DNA of 64,000 nt from a bacterium (GTDB lineage Bacteria > Krumholzibacteriota > Krumholzibacteriia > LZORAL124-64-63). The notes beneath the pieces were generated by a model, which was given only the letters and a program-made list of their open reading frames with translations, did no database searches and was not told the origin of the DNA. Location of the stretch: positions 1 to 64,000 of the forward strand of contig JANOEP010000010.1 in the NCBI GenBank assembly GCA_031441465.1, given 5' to 3'. Below, piece after piece: positions 8,840 to 61,179 of this stretch. A program made the translations under genes and the position numbers. Position 1 is the first letter of the stretch. Every line of letters starts with the position of its first letter.

Positions 8840-10191
<1,352 letters not shown>

Positions 10192-10236
10192 CCCGACACG
10201 CGAGCGCGCCGGCGAGACCGGCCGCGAGGAGGCACG

Positions 10237-11154
10237 ATGAGTCTCGGACAGAAGGACTTCCTCTCGATCCCGCAGCACACCCCGGCGGACCTGCGGCGCA
10301 TCCTGGAGCTGGCGAAGCAGCAGAAGCCCCTGGCGCGCCGCCACGAGCTGCCCCACTCGCATCCCAACCGCACCCTGGCCTGCGTCTTCGCCAAGCCCAG
10401 CCTGCGCACGCGCGTCAGCTTCGAGACGGCCATGATGCAGCTGGGCGGCCGCTCCCTGTTCATCACCGACAAGGAGATCGGGATGGGCGTGCGGGAGTCC
10501 GTGCACGACGTCGCCAAGGTGATGAGCCGCTTCGTCGACGCGATCATGATCCGCTGGTTCGACCACGGCGAGGTCGTGGAGCTGGCGCGCCACGCCGACG
10601 TCCCGGTCATCAACGGCCTGACCGACCTGCTGCACCCCTGCCAGGTGATGGGGGACATCCTGACCGTCGAGGAGCACCTCGGGACCATCGAGAACAAGAC
10701 CGTGGTCATGGTGGGCGACGGCAACAACCTCGCCAACAGCTGGATCAACGCCGCCCGGCGCTTCCCCTTCAACTTCGTGCTGGCCTGCCCGCCGGGCTAC
10801 GAGCCGGACCAGGCGATCATGGACGCCGCCGAGCAGGACGGCGCCTCGTTCTGCATCACGCACGACCCCCGCGAGGCGGTCGAGGGCGCCCACGTCATCT
10901 ACAGCGACGCCTTCTACAGCATGGGCCAGGAGGCGGAGGCCGTGAAGCGCCGCGCCGACTTCGCGCCCTACCAGATCACCGCCGACCTGCTGTCCGCCGC
11001 CGACCCCAAGCACATCGTGATGCACTGCCTGCCCGCCCACCGCGGCGAGGAGATCACCGACGAGGTGATGGACGGGCCGCACTCGGTGGTCTTCGACGAG
11101 GCCGAGAACCGCCAGCACGCACAGCGGGCCATCATCGCCCTGCTGATGGCCTGA
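10237..11154 (+). CDS. argF: Ornithine carbamoyltransferase family protein
   Basis: PSLRTRVSF, HPCQ, DxxxSMG, HCLPAHRGEE, FDEAENR. Confidence 0.9.
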   Translation: MSLGQKDFLSIPQHTPADLRRILELAKQQKPLARRHELPHSHPNRTLACVFAKPSLRTRVSFETAMMQLGGRSLFITDKEIGMGVRESVHDVAKVMSRFVDAIMIRWFDHGEVVELARHADVPVINGLTDLLHPCQVMGDILTVEEHLGTIENKTVVMVGDGNNLANSWINAARRFPFNFVLACPPGYEPDQAIMDAAEQDGASFCITHDPREAVEGAHVIYSDAFYSMGQEAEAVKRRADFAPYQITADLLSAADPKHIVMHCLPAHRGEEITDEVMDGPHSVVFDEAENRQHAQRAIIALLMA

Positions 11155-48768: not shown

Positions 48769-50439
48769 ATGAGCAGTGGAGAGTACATTTCCCTCATCGA
48801 CAATCTCCGCGCGTCGCCCACGGAAACGGAGTGGCTCGAGTTCAAATGCAGCCGCTGCGAACCACAAGAGCTCGGCGAGTATATATCTGCCCTCGCCAAT
48901 ACCGCCTGTCTCGAGAACCGGCCTCGCGCTTATCTGGTGTTCGGCATCGACAACGTGTCACATGCAGTCGTCGGCACCAGCTACGATCCCTATACAACCA
49001 AAGGCAAAGGCAACCAGGATCTGCTTCCCTGGCTCAGCGCAGGATTACGCCCTAACACAGGTTTCGAAATGCACATCGTCGAACATCCGGATGGGCGGGT
49101 CGTCCTATTTGAGATCGGTCCAGCTAAGAACCAACCGGTCGTCTTCCAAGGCACAGCACATATACGCATCGGAACTAGCAAAACCGAACTCCGTAAGCAT
49201 CCTGAAAAGGAGCGTGCGCTTTGGACACGAGGAATCGACTGGTCGGCAGAAGTGTGCAGGAAGGCCTCGCTGGAGGATCTCGACCCGGAGGCCGTGGCCA
49301 AGGCACGCGAACAGTTTGTCGTCAAGCATCCCAGCCAAACTGCTGCTGTAACCGACTGGGACGATCGCACGTTCCTCAACAAGGCACGGATCCTGAAACA
49401 AGGCGCCGTGTCGCATGCCGCGCTCCTGCTGCTCGGCCGCACCGAATCGGCATCGCTCCTGTCGCCGGTGGTGGCCAAAATATCATGGATTCTCAAGGAC
49501 GCTGAGAACCGAGAACTCGACTATGAACACATCGGCCCGCCGTTTCTGCTCGTCGGTGACCGCCTTCTCAGACGAATTCGCAATCTCAATGTGCGCGCAC
49601 TGCCGAGCGGTACTCTGTTCCCCCATGAGATTGCGCAATACGACCCCTGGGTGATCCGCGAGGCCTTGCACAATGCTATTGCGCACCAGGACTACCACAA
49701 GCATGGTCGCATCGTTGTGGTCGAGTTTCCGGATCGGGTGCTTGTGACCAACGAAGGGGATTTTCTTCCGGGTGACGTCGAGACCGTCATCCGACAAGAC
49801 GCACCGCAGGCACTTTACCGCAACCCGTTTCTGGCTGACGCGATGGTCGAACTGAACCTGATCGACACCCAGGGCGGCGGGATCAAGCGTATGTTCGAGA
49901 CACAGCGACGGCGCTCGTTCCCGCTGCCGGACTACGACCTGAGCGTGCCGAGTCACATAGTTGTGAGCGTTACCGGACGGATCCTCAATGAGCGCTACAC
50001 CCGACTATTGATGGAACGTACGGATCTTGATCTGTGGCAGGTCATGTTGCTCGACCGTGTGCAGAAAGGGCTTTCCATCAGCCGGGATCAGCATCGCCAG
50101 TTGAAGTCTACTGGGCTAGTCGAGGGCCGCTTTCCTAACCTCATCGTGGCCGCGGCAGTCGCGAAAGCGACGGGCGAGGCGGGCCGGCACATCCGCGAAC
50201 GGGGACTCGACAAGCAATACTATCTGGACCTGATACTGGCGTTGATCGCAGGGCACGGTCCTGTCGACCGCAGAGACGTCGATGAAGTTTTGGTATCGAA
50301 ACTCCCGGATCGACTCACTCCGGAGCAGAAACGCCGAAAGGTGAGGAATCTCCTCCAGGAGCTTAGACGAACCGATAAGATCCTCAATCTGGGGAGCCGT
50401 TCCCGTCCCCGGTGGTCCGTTCCGAAGCCCCGGCCTTGA
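48769..50439 (+). CDS. Schlafen/AlbA_2 domain + HATPase_c_4 (RecG C-terminal-like) + wHTH protein
   Basis: ETEWLEFK, YISALAN, LVFGIDN; REALHNAIAHQDY; YRNPFLA..M..LNLIDTQGGGI. Confidence 0.85.
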   Translation: MSSGEYISLIDNLRASPTETEWLEFKCSRCEPQELGEYISALANTACLENRPRAYLVFGIDNVSHAVVGTSYDPYTTKGKGNQDLLPWLSAGLRPNTGFEMHIVEHPDGRVVLFEIGPAKNQPVVFQGTAHIRIGTSKTELRKHPEKERALWTRGIDWSAEVCRKASLEDLDPEAVAKAREQFVVKHPSQTAAVTDWDDRTFLNKARILKQGAVSHAALLLLGRTESASLLSPVVAKISWILKDAENRELDYEHIGPPFLLVGDRLLRRIRNLNVRALPSGTLFPHEIAQYDPWVIREALHNAIAHQDYHKHGRIVVVEFPDRVLVTNEGDFLPGDVETVIRQDAPQALYRNPFLADAMVELNLIDTQGGGIKRMFETQRRRSFPLPDYDLSVPSHIVVSVTGRILNERYTRLLMERTDLDLWQVMLLDRVQKGLSISRDQHRQLKSTGLVEGRFPNLIVAAAVAKATGEAGRHIRERGLDKQYYLDLILALIAGHGPVDRRDVDEVLVSKLPDRLTPEQKRRKVRNLLQELRRTDKILNLGSRSRPRWSVPKPRP

Positions 50440-50775: not shown

Positions 50776-51504
50776 ATGATCCATCTCAACTCCCTGACCC
50801 GCCGTTTCGCCGCCCTGACCGCCGTGGACTCTCTCACCGCCGCCATCCCAGCCGGCGCCATCACCGCGCTGCTCGGGCCCAACGGCGCCGGCAAGACCAC
50901 CACCCTGAATATGCTGACCACTCTGCTCGACCCCAGCGAGGGAACCGCGACGGTGGCCGGTCACGACATCCGCACCGACGGCCCCGCCGTCCGCCGCGCC
51001 ATCGGTTACGTGCCGGAGCACGGCGCGGTCTACGAAGGCCTGTCGGCCGACGAGTACCTCGACCTGTCCGGCCGCATCCGCGGCCTGTCGTCCGACGAGA
51101 TCCACCACCGCGCCACCCCCTTGCTTGATCGCTTCGACGTCGCTGAAGCCCGCAGCCGTCGCCTGGGCACCTTCAGCAAGGGCATGCTGCGCAAGATCCT
51201 GGTCACCGCCGCCCTGCTGCATCGACCCGCCGTGCTGTTCCTGGACGAGCCCATGGACGGCCTGGATGTCCGCAGCCAGAAGGAGCTGGCCGACCTGCTC
51301 GCGGAACTGGCGGCCGGCGGTACGTGCATCGTCTACTCCAGCCACGTCCTGCAGCAGGTCGAGGAGGTCTGCTCGCGCGTGCTGCTGATCCACGCGGGGC
51401 GGCTGCGCTGGGAGGGTTCGCTGGCGGATCTCCAGGCGGCCCACGCCGGTCATGACCTGCGCGACATCTTCCTCGAGCTGACCGCCGACGGGACCGCCCC
51501 GTGA
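50776..51504 (+). CDS. ABC transporter ATP-binding protein (exporter type)
   Basis: GPNGAGKTT, FSKGM, LFLDEP.DGLD, SSH. Confidence 0.92.
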   Translation: MIHLNSLTRRFAALTAVDSLTAAIPAGAITALLGPNGAGKTTTLNMLTTLLDPSEGTATVAGHDIRTDGPAVRRAIGYVPEHGAVYEGLSADEYLDLSGRIRGLSSDEIHHRATPLLDRFDVAEARSRRLGTFSKGMLRKILVTAALLHRPAVLFLDEPMDGLDVRSQKELADLLAELAAGGTCIVYSSHVLQQVEEVCSRVLLIHAGRLRWEGSLADLQAAHAGHDLRDIFLELTADGTAP

Positions 51505-53123
51505 GCGCGTTCCTGGACCGCCTGATCCGCTTGGCCGGGGGAGAGCCCGGCGCCGTGCGGCCCCTGACGCGGGCCCTGCGGCTGAACGCGAAGGGGCAGC
51601 ACTTGCTGCTGCGCGAGAAGAGCCGTCGCCAGAGCGTCATGTCGGCCGAAACCGTGCACCTGCTCGGTCTGGTTCTGGCCGGCTTGACGTCCGTGGTCCT
51701 GGTGCTGGTGATGGTCATGCTCCGCGACCTCGGCGAGCCGCCGCTGGCGGCGGTCGTCTTGTGCGGCGCCCACCTGCTGTTCCTGTTCACGTCCGTGGTC
51801 GGGCAGATCGTGCCGGCGCTGCTCTGCGACGAGGACGCGCGCGTGCTCGGCTGGTGGCCCCTGAAGCGCCGCGACGTGCTGCTGGCGCGTCTGGCCACCG
51901 TGCTGGTGCCCGCCCTCCAGACCACCCTGGCGCTGACTGCGGCGCCCCTGTTGGCCTTCCTGTTCACGGGACGCCCGCCCGTGGCGGCGATGCTGCTGCT
52001 GGCCCTGGCCGTCCTGCTGCAGACCCTGGTCGTGACCTTTGGGACCGCCGCCTTCACCGCCGGCGCGTCGCGCTCGCTGGGGCAGCGTCGCGCCCGTCGT
52101 CTGGCCGCCCTGGTCGTCGACAACAACCTCGCGATGCTGCCCTTTCTGGTGATGCCCTTCCTCCAACCCCTGGGGCGCTGGTTCAAGCTTCATCCCGGTG
52201 TGCTGGACTGGCTGCCCCCCGTCTGGTTCGCGGCCTTCGCCGCGCCGACCGGCGGCCTGCCGGCCCTCAGGGGCGTGGCGCTCGCGCTGTCGCTGTGCGT
52301 GATCGTCGGGGTGATCGGCTGGCGTTTCGCGAGCGGGGGGGGAGGCTCGCCGGCGACGGTCCCCAGCCAGGTGGCGAAGGTGCGTCGCCATCCGGCCGAT
52401 CTGCTGCCGTGGCTGCTGCGTCCCTGGATGCGCGGCCGCGAGGGCTGGGTCGTGCGCCGTCTGCTGGCCGCGCACCTGCGCGAGGACTGGCGTTTCGCCG
52501 GCAACCTGCTGATGATCGTCGTCGTGGACGCCGCCATGCTGTGGTACGCGACCCGGGCCCGCCACGCCGACCGGGACGTCGCCGAAACCATGCTGATGGG
52601 CGGCAGCCAGGTCCTGCTGCTGCTCGTCATGTCGTTGCCGTACTTGTCCACGTTCAGCAGCACGCCGCGCGCCCTGTGGATCGTGGCCTTGGCGGACCTG
52701 GATCCGGCTCGACTGCTGGCCGCCCAGCGCGGCATGGTACGGGGACTGGCCGTCGTGCCGGTCCTGGCGGTGTTCAGCGTGCGCTCCCTGCACTACGGCC
52801 TGGGACCGGAGTTCCTCGCGGTGGCGCTGCTTCTGCTGATCAGCGAAACCGAAGTGCTGCTGCTGATCTTCCAGTGGTTCCAGCCCGAGATGGCCTTCTC
52901 GCGCGAGTTCACGCGCGACCAGTCGTCCCAGGCCATCGTGCGCTGGTTCGCGCTGGCGGGCGTGATGGCGGCCACCATGATCGTCAACCTGCTGGCGGTC
53001 TCTTACCTGCCGGTCAGGTTCGGGCTGGTGGCGGGTTTCCCACTGCTGTTCTGGTTCCTGAGACGCCGCCTCGCCCGCAAGGTCGCCGGTGGGCGACTCA
53101 ACCTCGCCGAGATCTCCTGCTGA
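51501..53123 (+). CDS. Putative ABC exporter permease (multi-TM)
   Basis: Many hydrophobic segments in two halves; GTGA overlap with the ATPase gene. Confidence 0.7.
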   Translation: MSAFLDRLIRLAGGEPGAVRPLTRALRLNAKGQHLLLREKSRRQSVMSAETVHLLGLVLAGLTSVVLVLVMVMLRDLGEPPLAAVVLCGAHLLFLFTSVVGQIVPALLCDEDARVLGWWPLKRRDVLLARLATVLVPALQTTLALTAAPLLAFLFTGRPPVAAMLLLALAVLLQTLVVTFGTAAFTAGASRSLGQRRARRLAALVVDNNLAMLPFLVMPFLQPLGRWFKLHPGVLDWLPPVWFAAFAAPTGGLPALRGVALALSLCVIVGVIGWRFASGGGGSPATVPSQVAKVRRHPADLLPWLLRPWMRGREGWVVRRLLAAHLREDWRFAGNLLMIVVVDAAMLWYATRARHADRDVAETMLMGGSQVLLLLVMSLPYLSTFSSTPRALWIVALADLDPARLLAAQRGMVRGLAVVPVLAVFSVRSLHYGLGPEFLAVALLLLISETEVLLLIFQWFQPEMAFSREFTRDQSSQAIVRWFALAGVMAATMIVNLLAVSYLPVRFGLVAGFPLLFWFLRRRLARKVAGGRLNLAEISC

Positions 53124-53159
53124 TCGTCGCCCGGCCGCTTCGCCGACACCGGCGCACCG

Positions 53160-53915
53160 TCACTTCATCCCGACCCAGCGCCGCCAGCGCGGCCGTGCCT
53201 GCAACGCGATCTCATGCTCCACGCGCAGCAGCCCGCCGCCGGGCTCCAGCAACGCGTAGCCCTGCCAACTCTGCGGAAGTCCGAGGTAGCGGGTCCCGTC
53301 GCGTTCGCATTCGTGCCAGCGGTGATGATGCCCGAAGATCCACCAGCGCGGCTGTAGGTGCGCCGCCACGCGGGCCAGACCCGCCACGCCGGGAGAGCCC
53401 AGGTGCGCGAAGTCGACATCGCTGGTCACCCCGATGCCCGTGGGGCAGTCGTGGCTGATCACGATGTCGATGCTGCCCGGCGCGTGCTCCAGGCAGGCGC
53501 CGATGTCGCGGTCGCGGATCTCGCTGCCGCTCGGGGTCGACCAGGCGTCCATGTAGCGGGCGCCGCCGATGCACAGGAAGTTCCGTCCACCCAGACACTG
53601 CACGGTGGAACGCGGCAAGTGGGTGATGACGTCCGCGTAGTCGCGCACCAGGCGGTCGAAGGCGACGAAGTCCTCGTGGTTGCCCTCGATGAAGGCCACC
53701 GGGCGCGCGAATCTTCGGCGGTCTTGTCGGAAATGACGGTGCAGGTCGGCGCCGAACAGGCCGAAGTCGCCCAGGACCAGCACACGCTCGACGGAGCGGC
53801 CCAGCACCTCCTGGGCGTGCGCGATCTGGGCGTCGACGACGCCGAAGCGTCCGTGGACGTCGCTGATCAGCAGGAGGGAGTCCGCATCCCGGCCGGGACC
53901 TTCGGCGGCGTGCAT
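53160..53915 (-). CDS. Calcineurin-like metallophosphoesterase
   Basis: ISDVHG, LGDFG, EGNHED, ISHDCP, FGHHH. Confidence 0.9.
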   Translation of the reverse strand: MHAAEGPGRDADSLLLISDVHGRFGVVDAQIAHAQEVLGRSVERVLVLGDFGLFGADLHRHFRQDRRRFARPVAFIEGNHEDFVAFDRLVRDYADVITHLPRSTVQCLGGRNFLCIGGARYMDAWSTPSGSEIRDRDIGACLEHAPGSIDIVISHDCPTGIGVTSDVDFAHLGSPGVAGLARVAAHLQPRWWIFGHHHRWHECERDGTRYLGLPQSWQGYALLEPGGGLLRVEHEIALQARPRWRRWVGMK

Positions 53916-53920
53916 CGCGC

Positions 53921-55987
53921 TCAGGCCCCCTTGAACTCGTGGTCCAGCAAGGTCTGCAGCGTCTTGAGGTGCGTGAACACGGCCTTCAGGGTCTTGCGGG
54001 TCGCCGGATCGAGCGCGTCGGGTTCGAGCCGGTTGTCCGGCTCGAGGCGCCCGAGGATCCGCCGCGCCTGGTGCTGGAGACGGAGGTCCATCAGGAAACG
54101 GAAGGCTTCGCTGAGTTCGTCGGCGGTCTCGGCGCGCAGTTTGCCTGCTTCCGCCAGGGCGATCAATCGGTCGGCCGTGCCGGTGGCGGCGATCCCGTGC
54201 TGCAGGGCGCGCAACCGCACGTAGTCGACGATCTGCGCCATGACGCCCTTGACGTCGAAGGTCGCGCGGTCCGCTTCGCCCTTCTCAAGCGCGAAACCCC
54301 CGAATGTCCTGAGCGGCGGCTCGTACTGCAGCACGCTGCGCGCCAGCAGGTGCAGGAAGCGGGGCTCGCTCGCGATCTCGGTCGCCAGGTGCTCGCGCAG
54401 CGCGGCGGTGAGCCCGCCCTCGTCCAGGGCGCTGCGGAAGTCGAAGAAGATCGCCGCCTGCAGGAGATCCTCGGCTTCCAGGGTGTGGATCCAGCCGCCG
54501 AAGGTGTGCCGCCAGCCGGTGAGCGACTGGCAGCAGCGGGTCTCCCCGGACATGATGCCGCCCCGGCAGAAGGGGTAGCCTGCGGCGTCCAGGATCTCGG
54601 AGAGCCTGGCGCCCAAGCGCAGGAAGTAGGGCCGGGCCGCGGCTTCCGCGTCGGCGTCGAGGTCCGGGTAGATCAGGGCGTGGTCCTGGTCGGCCAACAA
54701 GCTCACTTCGGCCCGCCCCAGGCTCCCCATGAGCATGATGTCGAAGGCCGTGGGCGGCGGGCCCAGCTCGGCGACCGCCAGCTCGACGCCCTTGCGCACG
54801 GCCGCGTCGGCGTTCTGCGAGAGCATGCGGCTGACCTGCAGGGCGTCGGCCCCGTGGCTCATCATGAGGCTGGCCATGGTCGCCATGCGCCGGTTCGCCG
54901 CCGCCAGGTCCTCGCTGCTCTGCGCCGCGCGCAGGTCGAGTTCGCGCGGCTTGGCCAGACGGGTGGCCACGGCCATGAAGCCCGGCCGGCCCTGCAGGAC
55001 GACGCGCGACAGCGACAGCATGACCCGGACGGTGCCGCCGTCGCGGGTGATCAGTTCTGCCTCGTAACGGGTCGGCGCGCGCTCGCCGGCGGCCACCGCC
55101 TGCCAGTAGCGCCGACCGCTCTCCAGCTCCGCGGCCGTGGGCCGCACCAGGTCGCCGGCGTCCAGACCGGCGAGATCCGCTTGCTCGTAGCCCACGAGCT
55201 TCAACATGCTCGCGTTGGCGAAGAGCCCCTCGTCGCCGACGGACATGAAGATCGACTCGCCGGCCGACTCCACCAGCGAGCGGTACTTCTCCTCGGAAGC
55301 CAGCAGGGCCGCCGCCGTGCGCAGCCGGCCGCGCTCGGCCACGAAACTGGTCCGCAGCAGGAAGACCAGCAGCAGCGTCACCGCGGCCAGGATCAGCAGG
55401 GCCGCGGCCTGCAGGCGGCCGGTCACCGCCGCCACCTCGCGGTCGACGTCGTCGGTGTACACGCCGGTGCCGATGATCCAGCCCCAGGGCGCGAAGCCCT
55501 TGACGAAGGACAGCTTGGGCACGATGCGCGCGGGGTCGTCCTTCCACTGCCACATGTAGTCGACGTAACCGGCGCCGTCGCGGCGCACGAGGTCGACCAT
55601 CGCGACGAAGATCAGCTTGCCGTGCGGGTCGGCGAAGCCGGACAGGTCTTCGCCCTCGAGGTCGGGACGGTAGGGGTGGACGATCATCCGCGGCTGCAGG
55701 TCGTTGATCCAGAAGTAGTCCTTGCCCTCCTGGCCGTAATGGAGGCTGCGCACCTGCAGGACCGCGCCGGCCTGCGCCTGCTCCCGCGTCAGGCGGCCGG
55801 CGCGTTCCTCGGCCTCGAAGCGGGCCAGGATGTTCCAGGACGACTCGGTCAACTCGCGGATCATGAGCCGTTTCTGGTCCATCACCGCGCGGCTCAACGT
55901 GGGCAGGAAGTGGAAGAAGACGACCCCGGAGAACAGGCTGATGGCCAGCAGGGCGGGCAGGCCCGTGCGCAGCGCGAGACGCTTCAT
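53921..55987 (-). CDS. Membrane sensor: TM-sCache_2-TM-PAS-DUF294 nucleotidyltransferase-DUF294_C
   Basis: DYFWIND..MIVHP..DLEG..D..GK...YVDYMW..PKLSFV..WGWIIGTGVY (Cache); EEKYRSLVE..FAN...VGY (PAS); MGSLGRAE....DQD, GYPFCRGGIM, IFFDFR, FDVKG (DUF294/DUF294_C). Confidence 0.85.
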   Translation of the reverse strand: MKRLALRTGLPALLAISLFSGVVFFHFLPTLSRAVMDQKRLMIRELTESSWNILARFEAEERAGRLTREQAQAGAVLQVRSLHYGQEGKDYFWINDLQPRMIVHPYRPDLEGEDLSGFADPHGKLIFVAMVDLVRRDGAGYVDYMWQWKDDPARIVPKLSFVKGFAPWGWIIGTGVYTDDVDREVAAVTGRLQAAALLILAAVTLLLVFLLRTSFVAERGRLRTAAALLASEEKYRSLVESAGESIFMSVGDEGLFANASMLKLVGYEQADLAGLDAGDLVRPTAAELESGRRYWQAVAAGERAPTRYEAELITRDGGTVRVMLSLSRVVLQGRPGFMAVATRLAKPRELDLRAAQSSEDLAAANRRMATMASLMMSHGADALQVSRMLSQNADAAVRKGVELAVAELGPPPTAFDIMLMGSLGRAEVSLLADQDHALIYPDLDADAEAAARPYFLRLGARLSEILDAAGYPFCRGGIMSGETRCCQSLTGWRHTFGGWIHTLEAEDLLQAAIFFDFRSALDEGGLTAALREHLATEIASEPRFLHLLARSVLQYEPPLRTFGGFALEKGEADRATFDVKGVMAQIVDYVRLRALQHGIAATGTADRLIALAEAGKLRAETADELSEAFRFLMDLRLQHQARRILGRLEPDNRLEPDALDPATRKTLKAVFTHLKTLQTLLDHEFKGA

Positions 55988-56035
55988 CGCCGTGACCTGA
56001 CCGTCGACCTCATGCCGATGCCTCCGCGCCGGAGC

Positions 56036-57094
56036 CTACAGCAGGAACTGCACGCCCGCCAGCAGCTGGTTGGGACTGTCGCCGGTGCTGAATTCCACCC
56101 CGTAGCGGACTTTGTGCTTCAACCGGTAGTAGTGCAGGCCCGCCGTCAGGTCGGACGTCACGGCTCCGGAGTCGTGATCGATGACGGCGAACTTGCCCGT
56201 CACCTGCACGCGATCGCGGCGCAATCCCGACTCGACGAACCAGGTGTTGCCGTGAAAATTGATGTTGTCCCAGTCGTACCAGCCGGCATTGAGCGTGCCG
56301 AACATCCCACCCGTGACGAACCCGGATTGCATGTCGAGCACGAACGCCCGGCTGTCGATCGTCCAGCCGGGATTCGTGAGCGGCACGTAACCGGCGCGGT
56401 TGGCCCGCCTCTGGTAGTCGATCCCGGTGCCCAGCAGCAGGTACGGATCGCCGCCCAGGCGTTCCTGGCCGTGGAACCAAGCCGTGGGCGCGGTGCCCAC
56501 GGCCGCGAATTCCAGATGTCCGGTGAAGCGCGGCGCGGCCTCGGGATTCTTCGTCGTCCCGACCTCATACCCGTCGAACACGCCCGCACGGTAGGCGAAC
56601 CGCGGGCTGCACGAGCCGTGCAGCATCAGGCCCTGGTCGCGCCAGACGAAGGTGTTGGCCAGCTTGATCACCTCGGCGTTGTAGTCCAGCCCCAGCAGAC
56701 TCGCGGCCGAGGATGTGCTCTCGAAGGACAGCGGCAGCAGGATCAGCCCCGCCTCCAGCCAGTGGTCCCCCCGCAGGCGCAGGTCGACGAAGATGTCCTG
56801 CAGGTCGGTGGACACGCCGCCGGCGCTGGAGCGTCCGGCGTTGTCGTTGTCCGTCTCGGCGAAGACCTTCACGCCGTCGGCGATCTGGCCGCTGAAGATC
56901 AACCGTCCCCGGCGCAGGTACATGTCGTGGTCGACCTCGGCGCCCGCCACCGTCACGGCGTGGAACTGCCCCAGCAGGCTGAACTGCAGGTTGGCCCCGT
57001 CGTCGAAGTCCCAGCGGGGGCCGGCGAGCGCGGGCGCCGCCGCGACCGTCAGCAGCACCAGCATCGCCCGCAGCAGGAAGTCCGTCCTGGTCAT
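56036..57094 (-). CDS. Outer-membrane porin (OprO/OprP-like beta-barrel)
   Basis: Signal peptide, YLRRGRLIFSG, RDQGLMLHG, YRAGVFDG, alternating beta-strand pattern, C-terminal AGVQFLL. Confidence 0.7.
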   Translation of the reverse strand: MTRTDFLLRAMLVLLTVAAAPALAGPRWDFDDGANLQFSLLGQFHAVTVAGAEVDHDMYLRRGRLIFSGQIADGVKVFAETDNDNAGRSSAGGVSTDLQDIFVDLRLRGDHWLEAGLILLPLSFESTSSAASLLGLDYNAEVIKLANTFVWRDQGLMLHGSCSPRFAYRAGVFDGYEVGTTKNPEAAPRFTGHLEFAAVGTAPTAWFHGQERLGGDPYLLLGTGIDYQRRANRAGYVPLTNPGWTIDSRAFVLDMQSGFVTGGMFGTLNAGWYDWDNINFHGNTWFVESGLRRDRVQVTGKFAVIDHDSGAVTSDLTAGLHYYRLKHKVRYGVEFSTGDSPNQLLAGVQFLL

Positions 57095-57153
57095 CGCGCA
57101 CTCCTTATTCAGGAAGGAAGGGGGAACGCGGGCCGGCGAACCGGCCCGCGCCA

Positions 57154-59028
57154 TCAAGCTTCGACGGCGACCCGCCGGTTCTTCGTCGTCAGCGACACCA
57201 CGATCAGCGCCAGGAAGCTCAGCGGGATCGAGATGATCCCCGGCTGGCCCAGGGGGTGCCACGCCTGTTCGGCGGTCAGTCCGTACGGGCCCGCGAACAT
57301 CTCGGGCCCGGTCAGGATGATCCCGAGCGAGGAGACGATGCCCACGGTGATCGAGGCGACGATGCCCGCCGCGGTCGTCCGCTTCCAGAACAGCAGCATG
57401 AGGATCGCCGGCAGGTTGGCCGACGCCGCCACGGCGAAGGCCCAGCCGACCAGGAAGCTCACGTTGACCCCGCGGAACACGATGCCCAGCACGATCGCCA
57501 CGATGCCCACCGCGAACGCGGCCACCTTGCCGGCGCGCACCTTCTTCTCGTCGCTCAGGTGCATGCCGCCGTAGCGGTCCATCAGGTCGTGGGCCACCGC
57601 ACCCGAGGCGGCCACGATCAGACCGGCCACGGTGCCCAGCACGGTCGCGAACGCGATGGCCGAGATGATCGCGAACAGCACGCCGCCGAAGGACATCGCC
57701 AGCAGCGGCGCCGACATGTTGTTGTCCGCCGGGTTCACCGTGCCGTTGGTCGCCGCGCCGAGCCCCAGGAACAGGGTCAGGACGTAGAAGAAACCGATGG
57801 CGGCGATGGCCACGATGGTCGACTTGCGGGCGCACGCCGGGCTCGGCACGGTGTAGTAGCGGATCAGGATGTGCGGCAGGGCCGCGGTCCCGAAGAACAG
57901 GGCCAGCATCAGCGACACGAAGTTCAGCTTCTCGGTCGTGGTGTGCACCTTGAACTTCACGCCCGGTTTCATCTCGTCGGTACCCGAGACGGTCTTCGGG
58001 TAGTAGACCGCGAACTTGGCGCCGGTCTCGTCGGTCACGGCCTGCTTCTGCCACTGCTCGATGCGGGTGTCGGGATGGGTCAGGTGGGCGAGGAACGCCA
58101 GGGGACCCACCGGTCCCGTGCCGGCGGCGGCTTCCGCGGCGCTCAACCCGCCGATCTGCCGCAGGCGGCCGACGGGTGCCAGGACCCCGCCCGCCACGCC
58201 GTTGACCTGCCCCACGCCCGTCCACTGCGCCTGCCAGAGCGTGCCGTCGGCCTCGCGCTTCCACCAGCTGGCTGATCCGTCGCGGCCGTACTTCTGCAGG
58301 CTGCCGGCGGTGTGCATCAGCGCGAACCCCTGCTCCAGGAGCTGGCTTTCGGTGGTCTGCATGGTCGCGTCGCCGCCGGGGGCGCCGCCGTCGAGCCCCA
58401 CAGGCTCGGTGCTCAGCCCGCGCACGAGCACGAAACCGACCAGGATGGTCGAGAAGATCAGCAGCAGGCCGCCCTTGAGGAACTGCACGTACGTCGTGGA
58501 GGTCATGCCGGCGGCCGACACGATGACGATCACGATGACGCCCACCAGGATCACGCCCACCCAGTGGGGCAGGCCGAGCAGCGGTTCCACAAGCGAGCCG
58601 GCGCCGTTCATCTGCGGGATGAGGTAGCAGATCGACACCACCAGCGTGGAGATGGCCGCGGCCAGCTTGATGCCGCGGCTGTCGAACTTGGCGTCCAGGG
58701 CGTCGGTGAAGGTGAACTTGCCCATGCGCTTCATGGGTTCGGCCACCACGAACAGCGCCACGACCCAGCCGGCCAGGTAGCCGATGGAATAGAGGAAACC
58801 GTCGTAGCCGAGGGTGGCGATCATGCCGCAGATGCCCAGGAACGACGCGGCCGACAGGTAGTCGCCGGCGAAGCTGATGCCGTTGACCGCCCAGTGGATC
58901 TGCCCGCCGGCGGCGTAGTAGCCGGCGGCCGACTTCGCCTTGCGCGCGAAGAAGAAGCTCAGGAACAGCACCGCCGCGACGAACAGCGCGAAGATGACGA
59001 TGGACAGGGGAGTGCCGTGCAGGTTCAT
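57154..59028 (-). CDS. actP: Cation/acetate symporter (ActP-type, SSS family)
   Basis: YYAAGG.I...NG...AGDYLSAASFLG, TTYVQ..K, GTAALPHILIRYYTVP, AVAASANLP. Confidence 0.9.
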   Translation of the reverse strand: MNLHGTPLSIVIFALFVAAVLFLSFFFARKAKSAAGYYAAGGQIHWAVNGISFAGDYLSAASFLGICGMIATLGYDGFLYSIGYLAGWVVALFVVAEPMKRMGKFTFTDALDAKFDSRGIKLAAAISTLVVSICYLIPQMNGAGSLVEPLLGLPHWVGVILVGVIVIVIVSAAGMTSTTYVQFLKGGLLLIFSTILVGFVLVRGLSTEPVGLDGGAPGGDATMQTTESQLLEQGFALMHTAGSLQKYGRDGSASWWKREADGTLWQAQWTGVGQVNGVAGGVLAPVGRLRQIGGLSAAEAAAGTGPVGPLAFLAHLTHPDTRIEQWQKQAVTDETGAKFAVYYPKTVSGTDEMKPGVKFKVHTTTEKLNFVSLMLALFFGTAALPHILIRYYTVPSPACARKSTIVAIAAIGFFYVLTLFLGLGAATNGTVNPADNNMSAPLLAMSFGGVLFAIISAIAFATVLGTVAGLIVAASGAVAHDLMDRYGGMHLSDEKKVRAGKVAAFAVGIVAIVLGIVFRGVNVSFLVGWAFAVAASANLPAILMLLFWKRTTAAGIVASITVGIVSSLGIILTGPEMFAGPYGLTAEQAWHPLGQPGIISIPLSFLALIVVSLTTKNRRVAVEA

Positions 59029-59324
59029 GCTCCGGCCCCCTTCCCGCCGTGCCCGCCGGACATTTCACGTTCCTTGCGGGTGCAGAGGTGGTTGTAGAGG
59101 AGGGCCTGGGCCAGGGCGAAGACGATCAGCCCGAGACCGTAGACCACGGCGAGGTTGAGCCCGGCGAACACGATGGTCTGCATCGCGCGGCCTTCGGCGA
59201 CGACGCTCGTCAGGACGAACCCGGCGTAGACGACGCAGTAGATGATGAACATCACGACGCCCAGCCGGGTCTTGTAACCGCTGGCGGGATCCGGTCCGGA
59301 AGAGCGGGCTGGTCCGTGGAGCAT
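59025..59324 (-). CDS. DUF485 (YjcH-like) small membrane protein
   Basis: Two TM helices, YAGFV, GLNLAVVYG; ATGA overlap with actP. Confidence 0.85.
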   Translation of the reverse strand: MLHGPARSSGPDPASGYKTRLGVVMFIIYCVVYAGFVLTSVVAEGRAMQTIVFAGLNLAVVYGLGLIVFALAQALLYNHLCTRKEREMSGGHGGKGAGA

Positions 59325-59487
59325 CTTCCCTCCTAGGGTGATAGCGGAAGGCAGGGGAGGGGGCGCCGGATGCCGCCGGGCGCCACCCTTCGGTGCGCAA
59401 TTCGCGGAAACCTAACATGCTGTGAAAATATACACAATGAATTCGACGCAAGAACGTATCCGACCGGATCAGTGAACAGAGGTGACA

Positions 59488-59523
59488 ATACCGAGATCGG
59501 TATACAAAGACTAATTTAGTCTT
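59488..59523. promoter_or_regulatory. Two adjacent palindromes in an AT-rich divergent intergenic region (candidate operators)
   Basis: ATACCGA-GA-TCGGTAT (59488-59503) and AAGACTAA-T-TTAGTCTT (59507-59523). Confidence 0.5.
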
Positions 59524-59665
59524 GTTATATCGTCAGTGACGTGCTCCAATGACGGGCCATCCGATGTCTAGGCGTGATCCACCCGCTTCAACCGCACATC
59601 GGCCGGGAGGGCTCTGCGAAGCCCGGTCCTGCGATCCTGTATCCGCACGATGAAGGAGTACCTCG

Positions 59666-60328
59666 ATGAACAAACTACACTCGATCTTGTGTTGCTGTGC
59701 CGTCGTCACCGTCCTGGCCGGCGGCGCCCAGGCCCAGAACGGGACCTGCCTCAACAACCTCGTCACCAACGGCGACTACACCGCCGGGCTGGTCTACGGG
59801 TCGATGCCGTCAGCGTCCGTGACCGGCTGGTCGCTGCTGACCCAATCCCCGCAGGTCACCGACGACGGCTGCAACGACCTCGGTTCGATCCAGATGTGGG
59901 GCAACCTGGTCGTCGGCGAGTCGGTCAAGCAGAACCTGCCCGGTGTCGGCATCGAGGCCGGCAAGCAGTACCGGGTCACGGTCTGCTACCGCTGGCTCGA
60001 CACCGGCAACACGATCATCCCCGCGTACGTGCGGTTCCGGTTGACGGTCGCCGGCGCCACGCCGACCACTTACCCGCCCACTTCCGGCTACGACCTGATC
60101 GGCTCCACGCCGAACACGTCGTCGGCCAACTGGACGACCTACACGTTCCCGATCTGGACGGCGCCGAACAATGCTTCCTGGCTCACCATCAATCCGGAGA
60201 ACGACGAGTCGCTGAACCACGGCGACCACGTCTCCTGGGGTCGCATCGACAACGTCTGCATCGAGCTCGTGGATCCCGTCGCGTCCGAGAATGCGGACTG
60301 GGGCACGATCAAGGGCACCTACCGGTAG
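59666..60328 (+). CDS. Secreted beta-sandwich (CBM-like) protein with a C-terminal WGxIK-type tail
   Basis: Signal peptide ending AQA; NLVTNGD, WTTYTF, IDNV; ends VASENADWGTIKGTYR; AAGGAG RBS. Confidence 0.7.
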   Translation: MNKLHSILCCCAVVTVLAGGAQAQNGTCLNNLVTNGDYTAGLVYGSMPSASVTGWSLLTQSPQVTDDGCNDLGSIQMWGNLVVGESVKQNLPGVGIEAGKQYRVTVCYRWLDTGNTIIPAYVRFRLTVAGATPTTYPPTSGYDLIGSTPNTSSANWTTYTFPIWTAPNNASWLTINPENDESLNHGDHVSWGRIDNVCIELVDPVASENADWGTIKGTYR

Positions 60329-60346
60329 ATCCCGTGCCGGTCTGTG

Positions 60347-60378
60347 CGGCCGCCTTCCCCGGGGGAGGCGGCCGTTTT
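60347..60378 (+). terminator. Intrinsic terminator
   Basis: CGGCCGCCTTCC...GGGAGGCGGCCG followed by TTTT. Confidence 0.7.
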
Positions 60379-60498
60379 CGTGCTCGCCGGTCTCATGCGT
60401 GATCGTTCCCGCCCCGCCGCCTGCGGAAACCTCTTGCCCCCTGAGGTGTTCACGGCCATCATCCGCTCAGGACGACCAGCCACGGAGGACTGCCGCCC

Positions 60499-61179
60499 AT
60501 GCACCTGCCCACGTCGCGCGCGGCGCCGTCATGCCGCTTATCCCGATGCCTCCTGACCCGGCGCATCCCGTTCGCGCTCCTGATCATCCTGCTGTCGGCC
60601 GGCTCCCTGGCGGCGGCGACCGATGGCTGCTACGTCGTGCGCGACGGCGATTCGCTGGGCCGGATCGCGACGCGCTGCGGCACCTCGGTGGCCGAGATCA
60701 GCCGCCACAACGATCTTTCCGGCGACATCGTCCACGTCGGCCAGATCCTGCGGATCACCGCCCCCTTCCAGCAGATTCACCCGGACAAGATTTCTTGGCG
60801 CCACCCGTACGAAGGCCGGCTCGGGCGCGTCCTGCGTTCCTTCGGCGCCCAGGCGGGTGCGATCGTGGCGCGCCGTACCGGCACCGACATCGCGTACCCC
60901 GCCGGGGGAGCGGTCCTGGCCCCCGCCAACGGACTCGTGCGCTACGTGGGTGAGCAGGCCGGGTACGGCACCCTGGCCATCATCGACCACGGCGGCGGCT
61001 TCACGACGGTCTTCGCGCCCCTGGATCCCGCAGGGCTCGAGATCGAGACGGGCCGGATCGTCCTGAAGGGGGAGTCCCTGGGACGTTGCGGCTCGCCGGT
61101 CGAGGGCCGGGAGCCCTACCTGCACGTCGAGTTGAGGGTCAAGAGCGAGGCGGTCGACCCGTCGCGCCTGCTGCGCTGA
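60499..61179 (+). CDS. LysM + M23 (NlpD-like) protein with degenerate zinc site
   Basis: YVVRDGDSL..IA...N.L...I.VGQ.L (LysM); GTDI, V.YVG...GYG..IIDH, LHVELR, VDP. Confidence 0.85.
   Translation: MHLPTSRAAPSCRLSRCLLTRRIPFALLIILLSAGSLAAATDGCYVVRDGDSLGRIATRCGTSVAEISRHNDLSGDIVHVGQILRITAPFQQIHPDKISWRHPYEGRLGRVLRSFGAQAGAIVARRTGTDIAYPAGGAVLAPANGLVRYVGEQAGYGTLAIIDHGGGFTTVFAPLDPAGLEIETGRIVLKGESLGRCGSPVEGREPYLHVELRVKSEAVDPSRLLR

Follow-up and report, generated by a model that had tools for sequence, protein, structure and literature searches.

We analyzed a 64,000-nt stretch from the genome of a Krumholzibacteriia bacterium (GenBank assembly GCA_031441465.1, contig JANOEP010000010.1, positions 1 to 64,000; hereafter the window), in which a transmembrane sensor with a nucleotidyltransferase output is encoded next to a metallophosphoesterase and a set of carboxylate uptake genes. 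Direct reading of the open reading frames (ORFs) places five genes on the minus strand between positions 53160 and 59324. In their order of transcription, these are a small membrane protein of the DUF485 (YjcH-like) family (59025..59324; 99 aa; Pfam DUF485, 35.3 bits), a solute:sodium symporter (SSS) of the ActP/MctC type (57154..59028; 624 aa; Pfam SSF, 221 bits in two stretches), a porin-like outer-membrane protein with a signal-peptide-like N-terminus (56036..57094; 352 aa), the 688-aa sensor (53921..55987), and a cytoplasmic calcineurin-like metallophosphoesterase (53160..53915; 251 aa; Pfam Metallophos, 40.9 bits).

The junctions, which we also read directly, are tight. The DUF485 stop and the ActP start share an ATGA overlap, 59 nt separate the symporter stop from the porin-like ATG, which is preceded by an AAGGAG ribosome-binding site, 48 nt lie between the porin-like gene and the sensor, and the phosphoesterase starts 5 nt past the sensor stop. 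G+C content at third codon positions far exceeds that at second positions in the five genes, as in coding sequence, with the porin frame merged with a longer ORF and not resolved separately. Among NCBIfam models, the symporter reached 449.7 bits with MctC (curated cut-off 670) and 388 and 310.6 bits with two ActP models (cut-offs 750 and 1099, respectively), all under cut-off. The porin assignment is weak (Porin_O_P, 20.0 bits against a cut-off of 20.9); the protein also matched NCBIfam ExtI at E 1.6e-10, far below that model's cut-off.

Domains of the sensor and the phosphoesterase

The sensor runs from a first transmembrane helix through an sCache_2 domain (aa 36-187; 55427..55882, minus strand; Pfam, 129 bits), a second transmembrane helix and a cytoplasmic PAS domain (aa 233-340; 54968..55291, minus strand; TIGR00229, 48.5 bits; PAS_9, 27.4 bits) to a C-terminal half composed of DUF294 and DUF294_C. 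By sequence, the Cache domain lies between hydrophobic helices at residues ~9-29 and ~195-215; in the structural model these fall within long helices at 2-62 and 178-230. No kinase, methyl-accepting chemotaxis protein (MCP), GGDEF/EAL or cyclase family was found in the sensor by Pfam at E <= 0.01, and matches to the NCBIfam models MctS and CtpM are confined to the Cache region, residues 30-210.

The Cache domain is closely related to two sensors of known structure that bind short carboxylates. In phmmer searches, it matched Adeh_3718 (4K08) at E 1e-40 and PscD (5G4Y) at E 3.8e-37, and structural alignment to the same two entries gave about 40-43% identity. The entry 4K08 holds acetate and 5G4Y holds propionate, PscD contacts its ligand through Y90, W92, H103, F126, Y143, W145 and K156, and it binds glycolate, acetate, propionate and pyruvate, larger acids not being bound (PMC5062169). 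The equivalent residues of the window sensor (Y91, W93, H104, F127, Y144, W146 and K158) are identical to those of PscD at all seven positions of the HMMER alignment. In 14 relatives of 56-87% identity, six of these residues are invariant and W93 is nearly so. From these alignments, the pocket is probably of the C2/C3-carboxylate type, with acetate, propionate, pyruvate or glycolate as its predicted ligand. PscD of Pseudomonas syringae, McpP of P. putida and Adeh_3718 share this sCache_2 fold; however, their output is an MCP signaling domain, whereas that of the window sensor is a nucleotidyltransferase.

This output comprises a polymerase beta (pol-beta)-type core, DUF294 (PF03445; aa 367-504; 54476..54889, minus strand; Pfam, 123.2 bits against a cut-off of 21), followed by the helical "substrate-binding" domain DUF294_C (PF10335; aa 542-685; 53933..54364, minus strand; 130.3 bits against 22.5). 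The pol-beta signature is G-[SG]-x(9-13)-D-x-[DE] plus a third carboxylate. The corresponding catalytic motif of the sensor, GSLGRAEVSLLADQDHA, provides G421 and S422, then D433-x-D435, and is completed by D516; these residues are invariant in 14 sequences. Neither an N-terminal cyclic nucleoside monophosphate (cNMP)-binding domain nor a CBS pair was reported by Pfam in the window sensor.

The AlphaFold model of the sensor has a mean predicted local distance difference test score (pLDDT) of 78.8, with blocks of the nucleotidyltransferase half mostly at 80-95. In a structure search with this model, two Cache structures ranked first, followed by matches of the C-terminal 340-390 residues to DrrA and GlnE. 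The output half aligned to Legionella DrrA (6yx5_B) at E 1.6e-8, with a template modeling (TM) score normalized to the target of 0.67 over 338 columns, and to the N-terminal (1v4a; E 4.4e-8) and C-terminal (3k7d; E 1.0e-7) domains of GlnE. An HEPN survey groups DUF294_C with the C-terminal domains of GlnD and GlnE in the same Pfam clan (PMC3710099). GlnD, GlnE and DrrA/SidM thus share the pol-beta core and the helical C-terminal domain with the window sensor; unlike them, it is membrane-anchored with an external sensory domain, and its likeness to them in sequence is marginal.

These results bear out how the original prediction had read the locus, as five tightly packed genes with the overlap and gaps given above and a sensor in which an sCache_2 domain sits between two transmembrane helices, followed by PAS, with no kinase, MCP or cyclase domain; here the Pfam scan and the hydrophobic helices agree. 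Its further readings, that the Cache domain is of the type that binds short carboxylates and that the C-terminal half is DUF294/DUF294_C with a GlnD/GlnE-like pol-beta fold, are likewise supported, the former by the seven retained PscD contacts (ligand binding itself is predicted) and the latter by Pfam, the intact motif and the structural matches.

The phosphoesterase has an intact metal-binding site. D19, H21, G49, D50, G78, N79, H80, H155, G195, H196 and H198, which make up the metallophosphoesterase motifs DxH, GD, GNH[DE], H and GHxH, are invariant in 24 sequences, and the model reaches a pLDDT of 91.7. Its nearest structures are phosphodiesterases (Dbr1, Rv0805, LpxH, GpdQ, MPPED2 and PptH), matched at 14-20% identity and TM scores of 0.42-0.67; because these values are so low, the subfamily is not assignable. 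The match to Rv0805 (2hy1; E 2.6e-9, TM score on the target 0.65, 18% identity) does not surpass those to Dbr1, LpxH and GpdQ. Dbr1 was the sole match by sequence in the PDB (E 5e-4) and reached E 6e-12 by structure. Rv0805/CpdA, Dbr1 and PptH share the fold and the five metal-binding motifs with the window enzyme, at 17-18% identity and TM scores of 0.5-0.67. No PPP-type protein phosphatase is among the structural matches listed, no NCBIfam model matched the phosphoesterase, and an ESM Atlas look-up returned generic metallophosphoesterase clusters only.

The phosphoesterase sequence has neither a signal peptide nor a membrane segment, and the enzyme therefore resides in the same compartment as the nucleotidyltransferase domain. 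Prediction of a complex between sensor residues 345-688 and the phosphoesterase scored 0.00 in both runs; with no controls folded, this weighs neither for nor against binding. We also noticed that the C-terminal ~12 residues of the phosphoesterase (window 53160-53200) form a conserved basic/aromatic tail, RPxW..RW.G..K/R, in nearly all orthologues, with low model confidence. This tail may be a docking or membrane-binding peptide.

Pairing of sensor and hydrolase across relatives

To describe conservation, we used the best 80 of 320 contig stretches encoding relatives (loci numbered L001 and onward) and, among these, a close set of 42 loci whose sensor has at least 55% identity, 39 of them full length. 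The named relatives are metagenome-assembled genomes (MAGs) labeled Krumholzibacteriia or Latescibacterota. The phosphoesterase gene directly follows the sensor in 38/38 close loci whose downstream flank reaches 760 nt or more (in L027 the two matches abut); in the 39th, L011, the phosphoesterase start sits at the contig end. DUF485-ActP is adjacent in 34 of the 39 close loci, co-directional and upstream in 6 and divergent in 28, and three others have flanks too short for this adjacency to be scored. The porin-like gene was found in the five closest loci (L001-L004 and L007), and more distant porin-like relatives (29-31% identity) occur in L048, L057 and L080. The sensor-phosphoesterase pair is the conserved core of the system. 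Clustering of neighboring ORFs, in which antisense frames of these GC-rich loci were mixed in, yielded no further widely shared gene; the next clusters span 9, 7 and 6 loci. Of these, one proved to be a CHASE hybrid kinase in L013 and another lacks a Pfam match.

An independent sample of 121 genomes from the phylum was searched with a phosphoesterase profile, which matched 21 genomes at E <= 1e-105. Each of these genomes has a DUF294 match on that contig, in the same orientation and at a distance of ~1 kb. The phosphoesterase is absent from the remaining 100 sampled genomes, save for one weak match at E 1e-25. Fifteen DUF294 matches elsewhere in the sampled genomes represent a second paralogue, whose carriers include genomes of the same family (G045, G074, G087 and G101) with no phosphoesterase match at E <= 1e-20. 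Each of the four second-paralogue loci examined (L087, 4499-8779; L088, 2654-10310; L089, 4260-6667; L086, 4394-6562) encodes a soluble cNMP-binding/CBS/DUF294 protein, and in three of the four it is neighbored by an RNase_T exonuclease; the order in L088 is SSS, DUF294, exonuclease, acs. Three of four annotated plasmids (from Hymenobacter, Vibrio pelagius and Paracoccus denitrificans) carry the same soluble DUF294 and RNase_T pair, with the order acs-DUF4212-SSS-DUF294-...-exonuclease on the Paracoccus plasmid. As the phosphoesterase accompanies the Cache sensor and RNase_T accompanies the soluble paralogue, the type of hydrolase tracks the type of sensor even within one genome. The window genome (3.49 Mb, 96.8% complete) has a single DUF294 gene and lacks the soluble paralogue.

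Beyond the close set, 17 distant full-length sensors with 37-45% identity are encoded in MAGs labeled Elusimicrobia, Spirochaetaceae, Anaerolineae, Verrucomicrobiia, Lentisphaeria and others. They combine sCache_2, one or two PAS domains, usually a CBS pair, DUF294 and DUF294_C, and an SSS transporter adjoins 16 of the 17, one of them of the DUF4212 type. The hydrolase that goes with them varies. A Metallophos gene lies immediately 3′ of the sensor in four loci (L042, L044, L073 and L080), and past ActP in one (L052). The gene arrangement of L080 matches that of all five window genes, a porin-like gene included between those for ActP and the sensor. A PHP ORF lies immediately 5′ of the sensor in three (L048, L057 and L062), and seven sensors (L043, L045, L046, L050, L061, L069 and L075) carry a PHP domain in frame at their N-terminus, their ORFs beginning ~235-280 codons upstream of the matched region. 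L071 has only a convergent AP_endonuc_2 ORF (9856-10692, minus strand), and in L049 the contig ends within ActP, so that a partner would not be visible.

RNase_T was not detected among ORFs of at least 110 aa within 3.5 kb of 13 distant sensor loci, and a candidate near L048 proved by Pfam to be a methyltransferase ORF. A search of five distant genomes for RNase_T found exonucleases, which mostly lie on contigs exceeding in length those that carry the sensor.

A profile search of 1.84 billion cluster representatives extended these observations. Among the best 150 clusters at 50% identity, of which 44 were scanned with Pfam, at least 42 are extended N-terminally by 220 aa or more. At E <= 1e-7, 29 of these extensions match PHP, 2 match RNase_T, 2 match AP_endonuc_2 and 9 have no match. 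In such fused forms, both enzymatic domains are cytoplasmic, on either side of the periplasmic sensor. The AP_endonuc_2 domain, a xylose-isomerase-like TIM barrel, is fused N-terminally in sensor clusters P0231 and P0256 and would be a fourth partner fold. The hydrolase partner is thus obligatory but interchangeable.

The original prediction had expected the phosphoesterase to be conserved together with Cache-PAS-DUF294 sensors, the neighbors to alternate between a DEDDh exonuclease and a calcineurin-like enzyme, and loci of the actP/DUF485 type to carry a soluble cNMP-CBS-DUF294 protein with an exonuclease. The first held in every scorable case (38/38 close loci and 21/21 phosphoesterase-bearing genomes), the second proved to follow sensor type, with PHP and endonuclease-IV-like partners seen as well, and the third agrees with the phylum loci and plasmids examined. 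The proposed five-gene operon was sustained in part: the genes are co-directional here and in a few other loci, but DUF485-ActP is divergent in 28/39 and the porin-like gene is rare.

We take PA3233 of P. aeruginosa to be a DUF294 protein. Propionate co-induces PA3232-PA3235 (PMC9765439). Pflu5625 of P. fluorescens belongs to the CrbS/R acetate regulon and is called a predicted nucleotidylating regulator by Sepulveda and Lupas (PMC5715377). In a fitness compendium, DUF4212 symporters are cofit with a nearby COG2905 gene (Price et al., 10.1101/072470). These COG2905 systems of cNMP/CBS/DUF294 composition share with the window system the DUF294 and DUF294_C output, the obligatory pairing with a phosphodiester hydrolase and the linkage to a monocarboxylate symporter, which in the known systems is of the ActP/DUF485 or DUF4212/SSS type, with acs nearby. 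They differ in that the soluble proteins sense through cytoplasmic cNMP-binding and CBS domains, whereas the window sensor uses an extracytoplasmic sCache_2 domain and PAS, with no CBS, and in that their partner is a DEDDh exonuclease, whereas here it is a calcineurin-like metallophosphoesterase. The window system is a variant of this known, biochemically unsolved module, with external carboxylate input, no CBS pair and a phosphoesterase partner.

A possible writer/eraser switch and its alternatives

GlnD combines a nucleotidyltransferase and a metal-dependent hydrolase in one chain, where the two act in opposition and are switched by ligand-sensing domains. We tentatively propose that the window locus encodes a GlnD-like switch of this writer/eraser kind, in which external C2/C3 carboxylates set the reversible nucleotidylylation of a protein and thereby act on carboxylate uptake; we consider its chances to be somewhat below even. 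The 688-aa protein would be a one-component transmembrane receptor whose periplasmic sCache_2 domain binds a C2/C3 monocarboxylate. The signal would travel via the second transmembrane helix and PAS to the cytoplasmic GlnE/DrrA-like nucleotidyltransferase, which would modify a protein with a nucleotide, either AMP or UMP, and the co-encoded phosphoesterase would cleave that protein-nucleotide phosphodiester again. The outcome would be a rapid post-translational gating of carboxylate uptake by DUF485/ActP, with the porin upstream in this lineage.

Several observations lead to this proposal. A nucleotidyltransferase that always occurs with a metal-dependent hydrolase, often fused to it and drawn from four unrelated folds, argues for one cycle acting on one phosphodiester-containing product. 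The transferase fold together with the helical C-terminal domain suggests that the acceptor is a macromolecule, as it is for GlnE, GlnD and DrrA. The nearest structures of the phosphoesterase are phosphodiesterases, and one of them, PptH, takes a phosphodiester-linked group off a protein. The near-constant DUF485/ActP neighborhood makes these proteins the most likely object of control, and since the pocket is of the C2/C3 type and the symporter scores best with MctC and ActP, the predicted ligand of the sensor coincides with the predicted substrate of the transporter.

Other observations weigh against it. On the side of the enzymes, the Pfam GlnE model reaches 21.8 bits on the sensor, under its cut-off of 24 (NCBIfam PRK11072 gives 16.6 bits where 487 are required), and with so marginal a match the sensor resembles DrrA and GlnE without family membership. 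In contrast to GlnD and GlnE, the partner hydrolase is not an HD domain, no target resembling PII or glutamine synthetase lies within the locus, and the chemistry of the window proteins is conjectural. The DEDDh, PHP, endonuclease-IV-like and Mre11/Dbr1-like folds are chiefly associated with the cleavage of nucleic acids or nucleotides, and we know of no DEDDh enzyme that strips a nucleotide from a protein. On the side of the family, our literature search found no characterization of DUF294/COG2905, and a nucleotidylylated protein is known for no DUF294 member in the literature searched. Price et al. speculate that COG2905 is needed for symporter expression, which is not gating (10.1101/072470), and deletion of Pflu5625 had a negligible effect on growth of P. 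fluorescens on acetate (PMC5715377). On the side of the locus, two of the 39 close loci (L025 and L033) have no ActP within 7 kb, and one distant sensor, L043, has no SSS neighbor.

The N-terminal cytoplasmic tail of DUF485, MLHxPA..SGPD.A..YK.RLG, is kept from Krumholzibacteriia to MAGs labeled Elusimicrobia and Spirochaetaceae, and Tyr17 within it is present in 13 of 15 aligned sequences. Such conservation is unusually strong for the tail of a small membrane protein, and the tail, with Tyr17, is a candidate modification site. A broader and more specific form of the proposal would make these sensors a class of receptor nucleotidyltransferases that convert extracellular acetate or propionate into reversible nucleotidylylation of the uptake machinery, with Tyr17 of the DUF485 tail as candidate target and an eraser of interchangeable fold. 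In this full form, we consider the proposal unlikely.

A different product of the same cycle must be weighed against the protein-directed switch. DUF294 could make a soluble nucleotide signal upon Cache occupancy, which the phosphoesterase or another partner hydrolase would degrade, in the manner of the synthetase/hydrolase pairs RelA/SpoT and GGDEF/EAL. Enzymes of the pol-beta fold can make messengers, as cGAS/DncV and RelA do. The partner hydrolase folds all act on nucleotide phosphodiesters, the window phosphoesterase resembles the cyclic-nucleotide phosphodiesterases Rv0805 and MPPED2, the soluble paralogues carry a cNMP-binding domain, and the fused hydrolase-sensor-nucleotidyltransferase architecture would suit a bifunctional synthase/hydrolase. 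By fold, however, the nearest enzymes are those that AMPylate proteins and share the helical C-terminal domain, rather than cGAS- or RelA-like enzymes, and the locus encodes no receptor that would read such a signal.

The intergenic region upstream of DUF485 bears on this question. A CRP/FNR-like palindrome, TTGTGTATATTTTCACA (59421..59437, minus strand), lies 97-113 nt upstream of the DUF485 start, within an invariant block aligned with L001-L004 and L007 (at ~3544-3600 there); the exact pattern occurs only in these loci. The palindrome does not vary among the six co-directional loci. Its counterparts at the equivalent position of divergent loci read TGTTA-N6-TAACA or TGTGA-N6-TCACA, and the former type is seen in most of 16 aligned divergent intergenic regions. 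By its sequence, TTGTGTATATTTTCACA is a candidate activator site of the uptake genes. The conservation of a palindrome ~100 nt upstream of DUF485 in both co-directional and divergent loci would suit a dedicated messenger, as a CRP/FNR-type regulator could read the signal there. Yet CRP/FNR sites require no dedicated new messenger, and the window genome encodes a class III cyclase and three cNMP-binding proteins above cut-off, which could already serve a CRP-type site. Transcription of the uptake genes is probably controlled separately via this CRP-like site, and we regard a second messenger made by DUF294 as unlikely. A second, perfect palindrome in the AT-richer DUF485 leader, AAGACTAATTTAGTCTT (59507-59523), is unique in the window and arose in 0 of 100 shuffles; it is absent from all 85 loci searched and is therefore not part of the conserved system.

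The cycle could also act on RNA 3′ ends, the transferase adding untemplated nucleotides to a tRNA, a small RNA or the uptake mRNA and the hydrolase trimming them, thereby tuning symporter expression. DEDDh (RNase T-like), PHP, endonuclease-IV-like and Mre11/Dbr1-like folds include 3′-end-processing nucleases and diesterases, and the best match of the phosphoesterase in both sequence and fold is the RNA debranching enzyme Dbr1. The speculation of Price et al. on symporter expression would also fit (10.1101/072470). However, no RNA-binding domain was detected by Pfam in the sensor or the phosphoesterase, and an Rfam scan of 52500-60500 (E <= 1) found no element; its two matches (ASdes and an internal ribosome entry site) are far under their gathering scores and were taken as chance. 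The fold matches are to protein-modifying nucleotidyltransferases, not to CCA-adding enzymes or poly(A) polymerases, and membrane anchoring would be unusual for RNA tailing. We consider this explanation quite unlikely.

Finally, it is very improbable that the DUF294 half has no catalytic role, serving as an inert scaffold or binding a ligand, and that the phosphoesterase is an unrelated, co-transcribed housekeeping enzyme: the literature contains no DUF294 biochemical activity that we found and the Pflu5625 deletion showed no clear phenotype (PMC5715377), but the G-S...D-x-D residues and the phosphoesterase metal ligands are invariant across relatives of ~55-87% identity and beyond, the pairing holds in 38/38 loci and 21/21 genomes, and other lineages have hydrolases of three folds joined in frame to this type of sensor.

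The interest of the locus lies in what it offers to the wider family. DUF294/COG2905 proteins are widespread and belong to the acetate regulon of Pseudomonas and Vibrio-type bacteria, and no published work that we found demonstrates their chemistry. What the membrane variant adds is a predictable C2/C3 ligand, a partner enzyme that is strictly inherited with it, and a few candidate targets encoded close by, which makes the DUF294 question directly testable; it overturns nothing established. Should protein nucleotidylylation be confirmed, it would represent a new type of output for bacterial transmembrane signaling and a new control of short-chain-acid uptake in sediment and groundwater bacteria. 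If the receptor nucleotidyltransferase class with its DUF485 target were also to prove correct, the DUF294/COG2905 family, including the PA3233/Pflu5625 type, would act as a post-translational gate on SSS symporters.

Uptake genes and surroundings of the locus

The ActP/MctC match of the symporter is split in two by an insert of ~145 aa (residues ~207-350), which we judged by eye to be periplasmic from the positive-inside rule. In tblastn searches, coverage of symporter residues 1-624 was obtained in distant partner symporters at 50-65% identity, which suggests, from sequence, that the insert travels with sensor-linked ActPs.

Single cases of other genes next to the uptake genes were also seen. 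A small Fic/DOC-domain ORF lies directly upstream of DUF485 in a Spirochaetaceae locus (L061, 12442-12831, minus strand), and a SpoIIE (PP2C) phosphatase holds the same place in an Eisenbacteria locus (L062, 12091-13377, minus strand); both families act on protein modifications. In two Elusimicrobia loci, a stand-alone 123-aa PAS protein is encoded upstream of the sensor on the opposite strand (L049, 6232-6603, minus strand; L052, 4687-5058, minus strand).

Downstream, the unit is closed by a convergent ABC transporter pair (50776-51504 and 51501-53123), and the rest of the window is ordinary chromosome, with MutS, MutL, MiaA, Der, GpsA and HolA. A scan for sigma-70 promoters and terminators returned 0 promoter-like and 2 terminator-like sites, which is uninformative against shuffle means of 0.5 and 2.7. 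Two freshwater-sediment DNA runs contain the entire stretch and may be where it came from, and other runs contain at most 0.11 of the sampled words. At 85% likeness, an aquifer RNA library yielded 19 contig pieces from relatives that match the sensor, the porin-sensor junction and ActP; assembled pieces from an RNA library are no proof of transcription, and gaps in their coverage carry no meaning. Between 48200 and 50700, the G+C content falls to 0.58-0.60, compared to ~0.70 around it. This stretch looks like an acquired islet and contains a 556-aa ORF (48769-50439) with Schlafen AlbA_2 and HATPase_c_4 domains.

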